Shown: one piece after another, positions 4,998 through 22,230 of the stretch
Layout of the letters: every line of letters begins with the position of its first letter
Position numbering within the stretch: position 1 is the first letter of the stretch
DNA from: a virus
Direction: 5' to 3' (one strand)
Virus genome (UHGV): UHGV-0099579
DNA: 23,440 nt
The notes under the pieces: generated by a model
What the model was told of the DNA's origin: nothing
Database searches by the model: none
What the model saw: the letters and a program-made list of their open reading frames with translations, nothing else
Program-made: the position numbers and the translations under genes

Positions 4998-5006
4998 AAT
5001 CCAAAG

Positions 5007-5462
5007 TCAATGGCGTTGACATAAAGCATCCATAATTAAACTCTCAACTTTTTGTAAGTCTGATGAAGAGTATCCGAGCAACGGTCGCGCCTCGTACTGC
5101 ACATCCCGGCTGTTGCGGTTTGGCCGGTCTTTTAGGCCGTACTGATGCACCCGCGCCATGCGCTGCACCTTGCCGGTAAACTCCACCACCGCCGCACTGT
5201 CGCTGCCTTTGGCTTTCATAAAGCGACTGGTGCGCAGTTTGGCGAACATTTCACGTTTAATCCGACCTTTCTTGCTCCTCACCGGCTGGCGCTTTCGTGC
5301 CGCATACGGGGTGCCGTCTGGTGTCTGCTGGCGCTTGATACGCTGTTGCTGACTGGTACGCAGCTTTTTCGCAATCTCAGCCGCCATTTGCCGACGCGCC
5401 GCCGGTGACAGGCTGGCAATCAGACCGGCAAGGCGTTCCTGCAGTGCGGTTAACTCACTCAT
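5007..5462 (-). CDS. Tail completion / virion morphogenesis protein (P2 gpS-like), 151 aa
   Basis: ORF translation MSELTALQERLAGLIASLSPAARRQMAAEIAKKLR...; overlaps the 3' end of the R-like gene. Confidence 0.9.
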   Translation of the reverse strand: MSELTALQERLAGLIASLSPAARRQMAAEIAKKLRTSQQQRIKRQQTPDGTPYAARKRQPVRSKKGRIKREMFAKLRTSRFMKAKGSDSAAVVEFTGKVQRMARVHQYGLKDRPNRNSRDVQYEARPLLGYSSSDLQKVESLIMDALCQRH

Positions 5463-12718: not shown

Positions 12719-13765
12719 ATGGGTAAACAAAAATCCCGTAAAGCCAACGCACAAAAGGCCAGCAAACCACAACAACTGACCGCCAGTGCACCGCCAAAAA
12801 CGACAGCGTTCACCTTCGGCGAGCCGGTGCCGGTACTCGATAAGCGCGACATTCTGGATTACGTCGAGTGCATCAGTAACGGCAAATGGTACGAGCCGCC
12901 GGTCAGCTTCTCAGGGCTGGCAAAGAGCCTGCGCTCTGCCGTGCATCACAGCTCGCCAATTTATGTTAAGCGTAACGTGCTCGCGAGCACCTACATTCCG
13001 CACCCGTTGTTATCCCGTCAGGATTTCAGCCGCTTTGCGCTCGATTATCTGGTGTTCGGTAACGCCTTTCTTGAGCAGCGCCACAGCGTCACCGGCCAGT
13101 TAATCAAACTGCTGGCCTCGCCAGCCAAATACACCCGACGCGGAGTCGACGATTCGATTTTCTGGTTTGTGGAAAACTTCACCCAGCCGCACGAGTTCGC
13201 GCCTGATACCGTGTTTCACCTGCTGGAGCCCGACATTAATCAGGAGATTTACGGTCTGCCGGAATATCTCAGCGCGCTTAATTCCGCTTGGCTGAATGAA
13301 TCCGCGACGCTGTTCCGCCGCAAGTATTATCAGAACGGCGCGCACGCAGGCTACATCATGTATGTGACTGACCCGGCGCAAAGTGCGACCGACGTCGAAT
13401 CGCTGCGCGAGGCGATGCGTAACTCGAAGGGACTCGGCAACTTTAAGAACCTGTTTTTCTACGCCCCCGGCGGAAAACCGGACGGCATCAAAATCGTGCC
13501 ACTGAGCGAGGTCGCCACAAAGGATGACTTTTTCAACATTAAGAAAGCCAGCGCCGCCGACCTGATGGACGCGCACCGCGTGCCGTTCCAGCTCATGGGC
13601 GGCAAGCCCGAGAATATCGGTTCACTCGGTGACGTTGAGAAGGTGGCAAAGGTCTTTGTCCGCAACGAGCTGTCACCCCTGCAGGACAGGTTCAGGGAGG
13701 TAAACGACTGGCTCGGCATGGAGGTCATCAGGTTCAAAGAGTACACCCTCGACAACCCGGAATAA
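12719..13765 (+). CDS. Portal (capsid portal vertex) protein (P2 gpQ-like), 348 aa
   Basis: ORF translation MGKQKSRKANAQKASKPQQLT...; start 1 nt after the P stop. Confidence 0.95.
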   Translation: MGKQKSRKANAQKASKPQQLTASAPPKTTAFTFGEPVPVLDKRDILDYVECISNGKWYEPPVSFSGLAKSLRSAVHHSSPIYVKRNVLASTYIPHPLLSRQDFSRFALDYLVFGNAFLEQRHSVTGQLIKLLASPAKYTRRGVDDSIFWFVENFTQPHEFAPDTVFHLLEPDINQEIYGLPEYLSALNSAWLNESATLFRRKYYQNGAHAGYIMYVTDPAQSATDVESLREAMRNSKGLGNFKNLFFYAPGGKPDGIKIVPLSEVATKDDFFNIKKASAADLMDAHRVPFQLMGGKPENIGSLGDVEKVAKVFVRNELSPLQDRFREVNDWLGMEVIRFKEYTLDNPE

Positions 13766-13812: not shown

Positions 13813-15030
13813 TTAGGCTTTGCTATTTATCATTCTGATATAACTAGGCATGCGAGGATCTGAAATTTTATATACCCCTCTGGCAGCCTTTGTAAGGATC
13901 GCTCCTTTATCAGCCCTAGTAAAACGCCCAATATAGTTACTCATGTGATAGTTACTCAATGAAATTCCCGTATCTTCTCGAATTTGGGTAATCCATTCTT
14001 GAATGGTAAATTTATTATCTTTGAATTTTGCTGCTGCATAAAGTATTGATGGATAAATATCAGTTCTGGATGAAGTAACTGCGTTCTCATAGTCTCTTTT
14101 AAGTTGTCCCTCGGTGTTTATTACAGCTCGCTTCAAAGCTTCAGGAAGAATGTCGGAATTTACTTCGCTTTTACCAGATGATAAAGCTATATCTGCAGAT
14201 TCCTTTCCTATAAGATGTGTAAAATATGGAAAACCATTGCTAATTTCAACTATAGAGTTTTTAACTTCACGACTAAATGTTATACCCAAGCCATGCTCGC
14301 CAGTCTCAATTATTTCATGTAAATATTTATCTTCAATTCGAGAGAGTTGAATTTCATGGAGGCATCTGTTCACAGAAGGATGACCTGCTATCAACGAAGC
14401 ACCGTCACTGGAAATGCCAACTAACAAAATCTTCAAAGGACTATTGGAATCACTAAGTTGTTTAACAAACTCAGCGACATCATGCTTAACTTCATCACTG
14501 ACAACATCAAATTCATCTATTAAAAGTATTGCATTCAATTCTTCAAGCGCAAAACAGGCTTTACTTGGAGTAAGGTCTTCTTTTTCTATCGTGATTTTCT
14601 CTTCGGCAGAAACGTCCGCTCTAAATAATTTCAAAACATTAAGCCCAATACCTGCTTTTTTGGTAGTCTCTCTTTTATTTGCGGCATATTCACTATCAAT
14701 AAATATAGCTGGCCTTGCAATTATATCTTTGAATTTTGTTTTTTTATCACATCGCACTACAAAAATGTTACTAGGTAACACACCTTCATTTTTCCCTCCC
14801 TCTAAAGTTGATAAGGCGAGCGAGCTTTTCCCAATCCCTCTCTCTCCATAAATCATGCAATGCTTACCATCAGTAGTTAAGGTGTCGAGGATATGTTCCA
14901 CCTCGTTATCACGCCCTTTCAAATGGGTAGGTGCCTCAATAGGTTTAGACGGTGTAAAATATAAATCAACATTTTTAATTTTATTTTTTTTGGCTTTAAA
15001 ATTACTGAATATACTGCTGGTAGTTGTCAT
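13813..15030 (-). CDS. AAA+ P-loop ATPase (ORC/Cdc6-like or STAND-like fold suspected) with winged-helix-like C-terminal region, 405 aa; AT-rich cargo gene between portal and cos
   Basis: Walker A GERGIGKSSL and Walker B LLIDEFD are visible, preceded by the ...LKGRDNEVEHILDTL... helix typical of AAA_16/ORC-like NTPases; first ATG at 15030 (the ORF-track start at 15048 is TTG); by eye much more AT-rich than the flanking phage genes; flanked by terminators on both sides. Confidence 0.8.
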   Translation of the reverse strand: MTTTSSIFSNFKAKKNKIKNVDLYFTPSKPIEAPTHLKGRDNEVEHILDTLTTDGKHCMIYGERGIGKSSLALSTLEGGKNEGVLPSNIFVVRCDKKTKFKDIIARPAIFIDSEYAANKRETTKKAGIGLNVLKLFRADVSAEEKITIEKEDLTPSKACFALEELNAILLIDEFDVVSDEVKHDVAEFVKQLSDSNSPLKILLVGISSDGASLIAGHPSVNRCLHEIQLSRIEDKYLHEIIETGEHGLGITFSREVKNSIVEISNGFPYFTHLIGKESADIALSSGKSEVNSDILPEALKRAVINTEGQLKRDYENAVTSSRTDIYPSILYAAAKFKDNKFTIQEWITQIREDTGISLSNYHMSNYIGRFTRADKGAILTKAARGVYKISDPRMPSYIRMINSKA

Positions 15031-15150
15031 TTCCGCATCCCATTGCAAAAAGTTAACTCATTAAAAGAAAAATTTAGAGTAAGTGCAACACCTATTTTCG
15101 GAGCTTGTCACAAGATTTACTACTGAAGTGTAACCGCTTTGGCGCGCAAT

Positions 15151-16759: not shown

Positions 16760-18982
16760 TTACTCATGTATTGGTTTTGATGCTTCAGCCATCGCCGCAA
16801 CACGATTAAGGATTTTCCGAGCTTTAGCCTCATGCGATGGTGCTGCGGAAAATATTTCTCCTTTGGCCGTTCCGCGTAGCCATTTACCATCAAAACAACT
16901 TTTACCACCGGCCATCAGGTGCAGGGCTTCGCCCCGGCTGATATTAATGCCGGTTGTCAGATGTATCTCATCGATAGTTTTAGCTATAGCTGCGTTTTGC
17001 TCATCCGTTCCGTGGATGAATTTTCGCCGTACTGCTGGCTTTTGCTTCCTGAGTCGGTTGGTCAATTCTCGTCTTTCACGCCGACTCAGTGGTTTTGTTA
17101 AATCCAGTATCGGTGGATCGCTTTCGCTTCCCGTACAGTTATTGACAGAACTCCGAGGGACGGCTTTGCCGTCCTGAAGGTCAACGGCCAAATCAACAGC
17201 ACGCTTCGGAACAATCTTCCACTGAGTGAGCCGGGTTAAAATCGGGCTTCCTGCACCTATGGAGGAATCGTAGACCCCCTTAATACATACCGTTTCCTCA
17301 CCGTACTGATTAAGCTCGGTACGCGGTTCATACAGTGTGCGCACCTGTAAATCATCGCGACGGACAAACGGCCCACCCTGAGCATTAACATAACCAGCCC
17401 AGTCACCAGCGTCGGCGGCATCATGGACGGCGGCAAACTCAACGCTCAGACCGTGCGCGGTTTCGGTATCAGCGAGGCGACGCAACTCACGGTAAACCGT
17501 CACCGGCGCACCACCAATAAACTGAAACTGACGGATGTGCCAGCGCGCAGCCCATGCTGAAACGGCGGGGGCTGTCTCTTTCAGCAGCTCACCGCTTTCA
17601 TCATCGGTTTCACCATCGAGAGCATAACCGTCGATATTTTTTGAAATGTATTTAGCAACATAGCCGGTTGCGCTGCCTTTCTCCGGGTCAATGGACTCGG
17701 CGTGGAAACGTGCTTTTTTGGATTTATCGCTTTTCAGTTCGTGGCGGTCTTCTTTCCATGCGTATTTACGGACGATGGAGCGAACATATTCAACATCTTC
17801 CGGCAGCATGAACATCAGCATGTGCCAGTGTGGAGTGCCGTCGTGATGGGGCTCGGCGACACGAATACCGAAAATACGGACATCTTCCCGATGTAGTTTG
17901 GCACGGATACGCGCCCAGATACCGGTTAGATAGTTTTGCGTGTCAGCCGGGCTGGCACCGCTCCATTTGCTGTTACGGTAACCGGCTTTAGTCGTGGCGT
18001 GATATTTTGACGGCGCGGTTAGAGTGTAAAACTCACCGACATAACCGAGCTCATTACAGATGTTTTCAAACCCACGAATGCGGGTCATGAGCTCACAGCG
18101 GCGAATCGCAGGGTTAGCAACTGAGCCATCATATTTTTCAATTAGGCTGATACGGTTGCCGTCTTCGTCTTCGAGATCCAGACCTTTGAGAAATTCACGA
18201 GTGCGGCGCTTTTGTTCACGCCAGTCAGTCACGCAGTTTTTACTCGCGTAAGTGTTTTTTTTCTTACTGACGTTGCCGACTGCAATTTGCAGGTGTTCGC
18301 GCCACGTAGCTGCAACACGGCGCAAACGACCGCGCCACCACCCATCGTTAAACATTTTGGCGATAGCCGGTGCGATTTCATCCGCACCGACATATTTTTT
18401 TTCAACCCGCTCCCAATGTGGTGGGATAACGTTGAATTGGAGGGAAATAAAGCCAGCACGAATATACCAGGTGTACAGCGTTTTAAGCTCGCCGAATCCG
18501 TGGTCATTAATGTTGGCAAGTTCACCACGAATGAAATTAGCAATATCAGCGGCCAACAGGTCAACATCAGCGCGCGACATGTCCGGGAGACGGTTATATT
18601 GGGCGACCATATTAACCATGCGTGATGACAGATATTGCATTTGCTGAGTATCAAAATGACTTCCAAAAACAGCGGTTGATACCTTGCTGTTGATACCAGC
18701 GCATTCGTATTTTTTTGCGACCAGTTCAAGACGCGGCAATGCCTTTTTGCAGAAGCTGATTAAAAATGCATTGGCTCGTTGACTACCCTGATTTTGCTCC
18801 AGCACCGCAGCAGTGCGATAAACATCTAACCGCACGCAGTCGGGCTGGAGAGAAAGCACCTTTTTTGCATGCAGCAAAGCCGCGAACATACGGTCGCGGC
18901 GATGCTGTTGCTCATAAGTAAGGTATGGGCTGGAGATTGCCGACCGTGGGACGTTCCACGGATAAGCGAATTGAACAGCCAA
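16760..18982 (-). CDS. Replication initiation protein (P2 gpA-like rolling-circle nickase), 740 aa
   Basis: ORF translation with HHDGTPHWHMLMF and GYVAKYISKNIDGYAL motifs typical of gpA; the ORF-track start codon is TTG with a GGGGGG RBS, and there is no in-frame ATG upstream. Confidence 0.95.
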   Translation of the reverse strand: MAVQFAYPWNVPRSAISSPYLTYEQQHRRDRMFAALLHAKKVLSLQPDCVRLDVYRTAAVLEQNQGSQRANAFLISFCKKALPRLELVAKKYECAGINSKVSTAVFGSHFDTQQMQYLSSRMVNMVAQYNRLPDMSRADVDLLAADIANFIRGELANINDHGFGELKTLYTWYIRAGFISLQFNVIPPHWERVEKKYVGADEIAPAIAKMFNDGWWRGRLRRVAATWREHLQIAVGNVSKKKNTYASKNCVTDWREQKRRTREFLKGLDLEDEDGNRISLIEKYDGSVANPAIRRCELMTRIRGFENICNELGYVGEFYTLTAPSKYHATTKAGYRNSKWSGASPADTQNYLTGIWARIRAKLHREDVRIFGIRVAEPHHDGTPHWHMLMFMLPEDVEYVRSIVRKYAWKEDRHELKSDKSKKARFHAESIDPEKGSATGYVAKYISKNIDGYALDGETDDESGELLKETAPAVSAWAARWHIRQFQFIGGAPVTVYRELRRLADTETAHGLSVEFAAVHDAADAGDWAGYVNAQGGPFVRRDDLQVRTLYEPRTELNQYGEETVCIKGVYDSSIGAGSPILTRLTQWKIVPKRAVDLAVDLQDGKAVPRSSVNNCTGSESDPPILDLTKPLSRRERRELTNRLRKQKPAVRRKFIHGTDEQNAAIAKTIDEIHLTTGINISRGEALHLMAGGKSCFDGKWLRGTAKGEIFSAAPSHEAKARKILNRVAAMAEASKPIHE

Positions 18983-20923: not shown

Positions 20924-21036
20924 ATCGCATTATCTCCTGTTGTTTGAAATGTAGTGCAGTGGTGTGCATCTTGGTCGGTGAGCACCAATATAGATCGCTA
21001 AATTTTGGTTGTAAACAAAATTCTTGTTGGTGTCAT
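20924..21036. promoter_or_regulatory. Lysis-lysogeny switch region between apl and cI (promoters and operators expected)
   Basis: Intergenic region between divergent immunity genes; repeated TTGGT/ACCAA motifs including the inverted repeat ttggtcggtgagcaccaa. Confidence 0.5.
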
Positions 21037-21882
21037 ATGTCTAAAAATGATGTTAATGCGTCTGCCGCATTGGAACGTGTCCTTTCTGCATACGGCTTTA
21101 AGCAGCAAAAGGAACTAGCCGAAAAGCTTGGCATACATGCAAACAACGTGAGTAGCTGGCTTGCTAGAAACGTAATCCCTAGCAACGTTTTCGTTGAGTG
21201 TGCTCTTGATACTGGAGCTGACCTGCGATGGCTAATTAATGGTGAGCTTGCAAATGCAAGATTTGAAGTGGTGAAAACTAAGCTTAAAGGTAAGCAACTC
21301 TATGATGAAATCATGGCAAATGGAGGGAGGGCGGTTCTGCGTCGGATTCTCGATGCGTATGGTTTTACTCTGCAAAAAGAGCTTGGAGATTTATTAGGTA
21401 TATCTTCCGGCACTATAAGCACTTGGGTTAGACGCGATTTTTTCCCCGGTGACGTGGTTGTCACTTGCGCCCTTGATACTGGCGTATCGTTAGAATGGTT
21501 ATCAACCGGAAAAGGCCAGATGCGTAACAGTAATGATGGTGAACCGGCAAATGCTTTAACGATTAGAAAGTGCCGCCTCGAGGCTGGCGAACTCAAAGAT
21601 ATCGGACGCTGGACTCCTGATATATCTATGGTTCCATCAAATACTGATGATTTAGTGTTTATTGATGGTGTGAGCACATCTTGGCTTGTTGATAGTTCTA
21701 ACTCGAAGATAGGAAATGGTCGCTGGCTTATTGGTATTGATGGCGCACTCGATGTTTTTGACGTAATCAGGTTGCCAGGCGGAAAGGTCAGGTTATCAAA
21801 TAAGTCTGCTGAGTTTGAATGTAATATTTCAGATATCACACCATCAGGTGCGGTTATTTTTACTTTGGAAAAGCATGTTTAA
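21037..21882 (+). CDS. cI: CI-type immunity repressor with two tandem N-terminal HTH domains, 281 aa
   Basis: Translation from the ATG at 21037 (MSKNDVNASAALERVLSAYGFKQQKELAEKLGIHANNVSSWLARN...CALDTGADLRWLINGE) contains a second copy of the same domain (VLRRILDAYGFTLQKELGDLLGISSGTISTWVRRD...CALDTGVSLEWLSTGKG); gene is divergent from the lytic operon and upstream of int. Confidence 0.8.
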   Translation: MSKNDVNASAALERVLSAYGFKQQKELAEKLGIHANNVSSWLARNVIPSNVFVECALDTGADLRWLINGELANARFEVVKTKLKGKQLYDEIMANGGRAVLRRILDAYGFTLQKELGDLLGISSGTISTWVRRDFFPGDVVVTCALDTGVSLEWLSTGKGQMRNSNDGEPANALTIRKCRLEAGELKDIGRWTPDISMVPSNTDDLVFIDGVSTSWLVDSSNSKIGNGRWLIGIDGALDVFDVIRLPGGKVRLSNKSAEFECNISDITPSGAVIFTLEKHV

Positions 21883-21891
21883 GGAGCAGTA

Positions 21892-22230
21892 ATGAAAAAG
21901 TTTATATTTGCGATAGTCTGCATTGCACTTTCTTCCTCAGCCATAGCCGCTGAGAAGTTTAAAGAGATAGACGGCGCTGCATATGGTGACAAGTGGCCTC
22001 TAACCTTTGAAAAGGCAAAGGTATCATGTGTTAACCGTGCTTATGCTTTTGTGTATGACATCAAAACTGATGATAGATATCCTCTGAATGGCATGGCGGT
22101 AGATGCTGTTAAATCAGGAAAGCTGGAGGGGTCTAACTTAGATGACGTATGGAAGGATGACCCTGAGTATGACGGCGTTAAAATTTCAATTTCACCGGTG
22201 ATTGATGCCGCTACAGCCCTTTGTAATTAA
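21892..22230 (+). CDS. Small secreted/periplasmic protein with signal peptide, 112 aa; cargo gene in the lysogenic cI-int operon
   Basis: GGAG RBS; N-terminal signal peptide MKKFIFAIVCIALSSSAIA followed by AEKF; two Cys in the mature part; lies between cI and int where 186/P2 have no gene. Confidence 0.7.
   Translation: MKKFIFAIVCIALSSSAIAAEKFKEIDGAAYGDKWPLTFEKAKVSCVNRAYAFVYDIKTDDRYPLNGMAVDAVKSGKLEGSNLDDVWKDDPEYDGVKISISPVIDAATALCN

Follow-up and report, generated by a model that had tools for sequence, protein, structure and literature searches.

The immunity repressor gene (cI) and the integrase gene (int) are adjacent in phages 186 and P2, and in 186 the pair is transcribed from a maintenance promoter and from a CII-dependent establishment promoter. 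About 45 bp and no gene lie between them in RE2010 and Cartapus, the two phages that were checked for this adjacency. Repressor and integrase of the 186-like Salmonella prophage BTP5 are transcribed in 22 of 22 RNA-seq conditions (PMC7067206). PSP3 carries a further gene between the two, gp28 (orf28, NP_958085), whose context was remarked on by Hadley et al. (2021; PMC8689200) and whose product belongs to the DUF2511 family. Another member of this family is E. coli YebY (PDB 7N0J), the product of the third gene of the yobA-yebZ-yebY copper-uptake operon, which is periplasmic by experiment and contains a Cys48-Cys113 disulfide demonstrated by the same authors (Hadley et al., 2021; PMC8689200). 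The YebY fold recurs in MlbQ (PDB 2MVO/6QFP), the NAI-107 self-resistance lipoprotein of Microbispora, which combines a lipoprotein anchor with a long linker and is encoded in a lantibiotic/ABC-transporter cluster.

The window analysed here, the whole 23,440-nucleotide stretch of virus genome UHGV-0099579, is a PSP3-type member of the P2/186 group (genus Eganvirus). The gene between its cI and int is almost certainly the orthologue of PSP3 gp28, encoding a soluble protein of ~10 kDa with the YebY/MlbQ fold, a predicted C46-C111 disulfide and predicted Sec export to the periplasm, and forming the middle gene of a cI-gp28-int lysogeny module in PSP3-type P2/186-like prophages. The two proteins have the same length of 112 aa and the same place between cI and int, and are 66% identical over their full length; they belong to different allele types (dN 0.27). 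Gene, family and context have all been catalogued before, as PSP3 gp28, PHROG 2950 and DUF2511, and are not peculiar to the window.

Layout of the lysogeny module and its surroundings

The initial annotation had described an ORF with a ribosome-binding site of its own, inserted between cI and int on the same strand, and the features collected in Table 1 bear this out. The cI stop codon is a TAA at 21880-21882 and the ATG of the DUF2511 gene stands at 21892; the ORF begins 9 nt downstream of cI and ends 24 nt upstream of int. A sequence scan found no terminator-like sites between cI, the DUF2511 gene and int, and promoter-like matches in this region were no more frequent than in shuffled sequence. 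Judged from the sequence, the packing is tight enough for a single operon. Because the two gaps are this short and no terminator intervenes, the three genes are probably co-transcribed: in lysogens, transcription from the maintenance promoter would cover the DUF2511 gene along with cI and int, and after infection a CII-dependent establishment promoter would raise the level of the cI-DUF2511-int transcript, as for cI-int in 186. It is from this operon structure, by analogy with 186-type biology and from the transcription of repressor and integrase in BTP5 that we infer expression of the gp28 orthologue in lysogens. GC content is 42% in the DUF2511 gene and 43.5% in cI, and averages 51% across the window.

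Table 1. Features of the cI-int region of the window, and contexts of four more distant relatives of its DUF2511 gene.
Feature	Position	Strand	Remarks
apl/cox-like gene, 123 aa	20552..20923	-	ORF; first gene of divergent lytic operon; cI neighbour in 76/80 viral loci
Promoter-like site TTTACA-17-TATATT	20987..21015	-	10/12 matches; faces apl/cox-like gene; consensus match only
cI immunity repressor, PSP3 type, 281 aa	21037..21882	+	Pfam Phage_CI_repr (two matches) and Phage_CI_C; first gene of operon
Shine-Dalgarno AGGAG	21882..21886	+	Overlaps cI stop codon; 5-nt spacer to ATG; read from sequence
DUF2511/YebY-family gene, 112 aa	21892..22230	+	Orthologue of PSP3 gp28/orf28, PHROG 2950; coordinates include stop codon
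Predicted Sec signal peptide, residues 1-19	21892..21948	+	MKKFIFAIVCIALSSSAIA; n/h/c regions; small-x-small|AEK site
Mature domain, 93 aa	21949..22227	+	~10.2 kDa; pI ~4.6; C46 and C111, predicted disulfide
Tyrosine integrase, 349 aa	22255..23304	+	Pfam Int_N and Phage_integrase; third gene of operon
Relative P0025			After CI, in a prophage remnant
Relative P0026			Between single-HTH CI (upstream) and int (downstream)
Relative P0027			Between double-HTH CI and int
Relative P0028			Adjoins small HTH gene in another P2-like phage

The best promoter-like match of the switch region, the minus-strand site in Table 1, is probably the early lytic promoter of the switch; the consensus scan gave no comparable match for a maintenance promoter upstream of cI. 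The gene in the apl/cox position matches no Pfam family. Its counterparts in related loci fall mainly into two classes, ~93-100% and ~66-77% identical to the window copy, which combine freely with CI and DUF2511 types.

The window CI is 73% identical to PSP3 CI. The extra length of the PSP3 repressor was ascribed to a longer C-terminal domain in an earlier comparative paper (PMC3448106); in the window, the 281 residues result from a tandemly duplicated HTH domain, residues 9-70 aligning with residues 98-159, and PF07022 is matched twice.

Elsewhere in the window, a minus-strand gene (13813..15048) for a P-loop NTPase of 411 aa lies in the interval from the portal gene (12719..13765) to the replication gene A (16760..18982). 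The protein matches Pfam nSTAND1 (E=1.2e-8) and, weakly, the PADLOC model PDC-S59 (E=7.9e-8), and the GC content of the gene is 36% compared with 51% for the window. P2-like phages have their main defence hotspot at this position (PMC13586616), and because of this siting we regard it as a candidate defence gene.

The cI-int junction and the distribution of the module

The place taken by the gp28 orthologue is used by other genes in related phages. Klebsiella phage KP12 carries PD-Lambda-1 in the cI-int slot (L010, 1047..2723; PADLOC E=7e-120). This gene is like the gp28 orthologue in occupying the cI-int cargo position of a 186-like phage, but its product is an unrelated cytoplasmic protein of 558 aa with DUF4041 and T5orf172/MUG113, and the likeness is one of position alone. 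Phage 4LV2017 has an unrelated 349-aa ORF in the slot (L009, 1851..2900), with no Pfam or PADLOC match. Some PSP3-type modules hold a second cargo gene in the same operon, beside the DUF2511 gene, which encodes in one case a 134-aa signal-peptide protein without known family, between cI and the DUF2511 gene (L018, 4570..4974), and in the other a 168-aa bPH_3 and SHOCT protein, between the DUF2511 gene and int (L026, 5355..5861). Judged by these genes, the space between cI and int serves related phages as a cargo slot. The integrase-primase interval counts among the minor defence hotspots of P2-like prophages in a survey of 2026 (PMC13586616).

A 2.5-kb region of the window is 76-88% identical in nucleotide sequence to Salmonella phages SW9, SI22, SEN1 and PSP3, Escherichia phages Midge and vB_EcoM-613R3, and Klebsiella phage RCIP0057. 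Each of these seven phages has an annotated gene at the same place, entered as PSP3 gp28/orf28, 'DUF2511 domain-containing protein' or 'putative periplasmic protein'. The same seven phages account for the ten matching entries among 50,697 phage records, all of which hold a PSP3-type CI (67-91% identity), a gp28-type gene (63-84%) and a PSP3-type Int (91-99%, with PSP3 Int itself at 91%), while the next most similar integrases (~60%) occur without a DUF2511 gene. Within the genomes of these ten records, the gene is absent from all other positions. Other phage lineages with DUF2511 were sought by tblastn with two distant family members, which returned only the same ten PSP3-type records, and ten diverse family members searched against PHROGs matched only phrog_2950.

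The arrangement is fixed. The order cI-DUF2511-int was found in 10 of 10 phage records and 80 of 80 IMG/VR loci, with spacings of 9-12 nt and 22-27 nt that are constant save in loci with an extra gene (L018, L026-28 and L032). The window carries the PSP3-type lysogeny module in full, its protein matching phrog_2950 over the whole length (E=1.8e-55) and its gene being syntenic with a PSP3-type CI and Int. Hosts of the module include Salmonella, Escherichia, Klebsiella, Enterobacter and Pantoea-like bacteria; a scan of GTDB species representatives gave three loci. In Salmonella enterica, 919 contigs encode the exact window protein, within prophages that border at their int end on an ompA-family gene and a GGDEF gene, followed further on by DAHP-synthase and chorismate mutase/prephenate dehydrogenase genes, which we take to be aroF/tyrA. 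At the nucleotide level, the same allele (100% identity) occurs both in S. enterica and in E. coli, where 17 of 5,426 complete genomes have it, and this indicates a recent spread of the module across genera. The nearest relatives beyond the module, found in a library of 1.8 billion proteins at 35-39% identity (P0025-P0028, Table 1), are all located in P2-like immunity regions.

Export signal, fold and divergence of the protein

A Sec signal peptide and two cysteines in the mature part had been proposed from the first look at the ORF, and both were confirmed at the level of prediction. The segment MKKFIFAIVCIALSSSAIA|AEKF has canonical n/h/c regions: the n-region contains two basic residues, the h-region spans 12 residues with a mean Kyte-Doolittle hydropathy of 2.3, and the residues at -3 and -1 are small. 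Cleavage is predicted at AIA|AEK; 53 of 56 unique orthologues retain AEK as the mature N-terminus, the signal peptide being the most variable part of the protein. In alignment, C46 and C111 fall on Cys48 and Cys113, which form the disulfide of E. coli YebY; C46 does not vary among the orthologues, and 55 of the 56 unique ones have C111. The third cysteine, C10, lies inside the signal peptide. A lipoprotein was ruled out, as there is no lipobox (A-I-V precedes C10) and C10, which is not conserved, falls within the hydrophobic core of the signal peptide. After cleavage, no transmembrane segment is found in the gp28 orthologue.

The initial annotation had also voiced a vague impression of a small periplasmic DUF-type protein, to which homology and structure searches have now given a name, DUF2511/YebY. 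The only Pfam match is DUF2511 (PF10709), at 67.8 bits against a gathering cutoff of 21 (E=1.1e-18) and covering profile positions 5-87 of 87, and the solved structure of E. coli YebY (7N0J) is matched by sequence at E=3.8e-8. Family membership is indicated jointly by this score, by the aligned cysteine pair with its predicted bond and by the predicted signal peptide. An AlphaFold2 model built with 88 family members reached a mean pLDDT of 89.5, and >95 across the mature domain; an earlier run on 22 close homologues (pLDDT 66) was set aside in its favour. The model has the YebY/MlbQ fold, a four-stranded antiparallel sheet packed by helices. Beyond YebY and MlbQ, no structural relatives were found in PDB or BFVD, and no BFVD viral protein matched with E<0.1. 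Export by the Sec route, a disulfide bond and a soluble periplasmic YebY fold are thus strongly supported predictions for this protein from the middle of the cI-int operon.

One allele departs from the cysteine pattern. In the P0009 allele (an E. coli cluster of 101 member sequences; L066/L067, match at 1913-2203 and 5001-5291), the C-terminal disulfide cysteine is replaced by tryptophan (C111W), giving ALWE for ALCE. Loss of either cysteine abolished the expression of YebY (PMC8689200).

All 88 of the 88 copies collected are intact and encode 57 distinct proteins of 112-113 aa. The median pairwise dN/dS is 0.16 (1038 pairs), compared with 0.12 for cI and 0.03 for int. By these measures, the DUF2511 gene is real, conserved and under purifying selection. 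It is also, from nucleotide comparison, a divergence hotspot: between the window and L038, identity is 97% in cI, falls to 47-80% in the DUF2511 gene and returns to 98% in the 3' part of int. At 85% amino acid identity, there are ten allele types alongside nine CI types and three Int types, and the allele types are reassorted freely among CI types on a near-invariant int. A linkage of allele type to immunity type is ruled out by this free reassortment, and because of it the gp28 allele is not tied to immunity specificity.

The phage clade has a set of invariant positions of its own, comprising G32, W35-P36-L37, F39, A42, S45-C46, N48, F53-V54-Y55, T59, R62-Y63-P64, G67, A69, V73, G76-K77, G80, V86, P91, P102 and L110, from which the signature motifs WPLTF, FVY, RYP and GK..G can be read. 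Identity is ~33% to E. coli YebY and 30% to YebY from a genome with an additional, phage-type copy. The possibility, raised at the outset, that the phage had freshly captured a fragment of a host housekeeping gene does not hold: recent capture is ruled out because the protein is only 30-33% identical to host YebY, and the GC content of the gene is close to that of cI. Deep nodes were unresolved (18% support) in a neighbour-joining tree of 46 family members, and the donor lineage was left unassigned. One side observation concerns L091/L092 (1..5000), a degraded P2-like prophage with CI, the phage-type YebY homologue P0025 and a bPH/SHOCT gene, located directly beside chromosomal copD-yebY, so that two YebY paralogues, 32% identical, lie 3.5 kb apart. 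This neighbourhood may be a coincidence, or it may hint at the origin of the phage gene.

Candidate roles in the lysogen

We tentatively favour the reading that the gp28 orthologue is a lysogen-expressed periplasmic binder protecting against other phages, and that it is accessory cargo and not a part of the switch; we put the probability of this at roughly 35%. The protein would bind a partner in the periplasm, most likely either something that the incoming phage brings with it (its tail tip, proteins that it ejects or an activity that penetrates the cell wall) or, alternatively, a host envelope factor that the incoming phage requires, and the outcome would be protection of the superinfection-exclusion type, independent of repressor immunity. 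We prefer this reading because the slot is common with a defence gene, because allele diversity is combined with recombination at the borders of the gene, and because the surface signature is unlike that of host YebY. Since the phage clade has invariant motifs of its own and does not keep the residues of the copper-operon clade, its partner probably differs from that of host YebY. Several points count against a protective binder. The dN/dS values show purifying and not diversifying selection, and allele diversity and recombination are equally expected from ordinary mosaic phage evolution. Moreover, sharing a slot with a defence gene is guilt by position alone.

A comparison with known exclusion systems cuts both ways. 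T4 Sp/Imm, P22 SieA, HK97 gp15, TP-J34 Ltp, T5 Llp and phi80 Cor are envelope-acting exclusion proteins made alongside or independently of repressor immunity, and the gp28 orthologue is likewise small and predicted to be an envelope-located product of the resident phage. In most known cases, exclusion proteins are anchored in the membrane or are lipoproteins, and those just named are membrane proteins or lipoproteins, whereas the gp28 orthologue is predicted to be soluble and has no sequence or fold similarity to any of them. None of the 5027 PADLOC defence models matched it at E<=0.01, which rules out a known defence gene, and PADLOC, Pfam, PDB and BFVD gave no homology to known anti-phage defence or superinfection-exclusion families. 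Nothing found ties the protein to superinfection exclusion or to a change of the host surface, the two roles proposed at the outset.

A role in copper homeostasis is the strongest competitor, and we consider it unlikely. As a case of lysogenic conversion, the phage protein would, like YebY, damp import through the CopD-type YebZ (with YobA), lowering copper uptake by the lysogen and possibly altering mar-dependent antibiotic tolerance. Among Gram-negative family members, functional data exist only for YebY, and they point this way: YebZ-dependent copper accumulation falls when YebY is co-expressed (PMC11923076). Weak copper binding in the reduced state is a further mark of the copper-operon (AZY-type) YebY subgroup. 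The phage protein has its fold, its predicted disulfide and its predicted compartment in common with YebY, all hosts seen belong to groups with yobA-yebZ-yebY (PMC8689200), the phage and copper-operon clades are sisters in the neighbour-joining tree (at 18% support only), and one P2-like remnant has a phage-type copy directly beside chromosomal copD-yebY. The genetic setting is nevertheless different: the phage copy stands in an immunity operon, its neighbours are cI and int in 88 of 88 loci, and copC (yobA) and copD (yebZ) never adjoin it. Identity to host YebY is low, as given above, and the phage clade lacks the residues conserved within the copper-operon clade (among them W-x-F, EEV and ERA), having a different signature that coincides with the AZY-type subgroup only at family-wide core positions and at T59, P64 and G76. 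The hosts, furthermore, already carry a yebY of their own, and a highly conserved host partner would not account for ten divergent, reassorting alleles.

Still less likely, in our view, is that the gene serves the phage's own life cycle or is a near-neutral passenger wedged in an essential operon. If co-expressed with Int from the establishment promoter, the protein could act at infection or induction, through envelope conditioning or through restraint of premature lysis or of lysis from without. The strict linkage to the PSP3-type cI/int module, in the same ten of 50,697 records and never elsewhere in those genomes, agrees with either version, and the circulating C111W allele suggests that the gene is dispensable. 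The dN/dS of 0.16 and the uniformly intact reading frames argue against neutrality, and phages of the 186, P2 and RE2010 types complete the same cycle without the gene.

Immunity of the MlbQ kind, in which an envelope-targeting peptide (a bacteriocin, a microcin or a lipid II-binding peptide) would be sequestered in the periplasm to protect the lysogen from competitors and not from phages, is improbable: lantibiotics seldom cross the Gram-negative outer membrane, identity to MlbQ is ~20%, the gp28 orthologue lacks the lipobox with its lipid-modified cysteine, the anchor and the long linker, its neighbours are phage genes with no lantibiotic cluster, ABC transporter or toxin gene nearby, and no candidate ligand is known; allelic diversity could nonetheless track diverse peptide ligands, and MlbQ has been proposed to bind NAI-107 directly, as cited in PMC8689200.

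A protective periplasmic binder stays the reading that we favour for a gene that is otherwise a well-conserved, ordinary and already annotated phage gene with a putative role only. A broader proposition is that phage YebY-fold proteins form an unrecognised class of soluble periplasmic exclusion or defence factors in P2/186-like immunity operons, the approximately ten alleles reflecting different phage targets, or else that they are mimics of host YebY that reprogramme copper uptake by the lysogen; we hold this to be less likely than not. The two studied members of the family are linked to copper import with antibiotic tolerance (YebY) and to self-resistance to an antibiotic peptide (MlbQ), and here a member would be made by a resident prophage and would reach, as predicted, the envelope of lysogens of Salmonella, E. 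coli and Klebsiella. If it modulates copper uptake, it would represent a new kind of lysogenic conversion, with a bearing on survival in macrophages and on copper-supplemented farms. If it protects from other phages, the exclusion proteins known so far would gain a soluble periplasmic type, and the cI-int junction of 186-like phages would be a place to seek more such genes.
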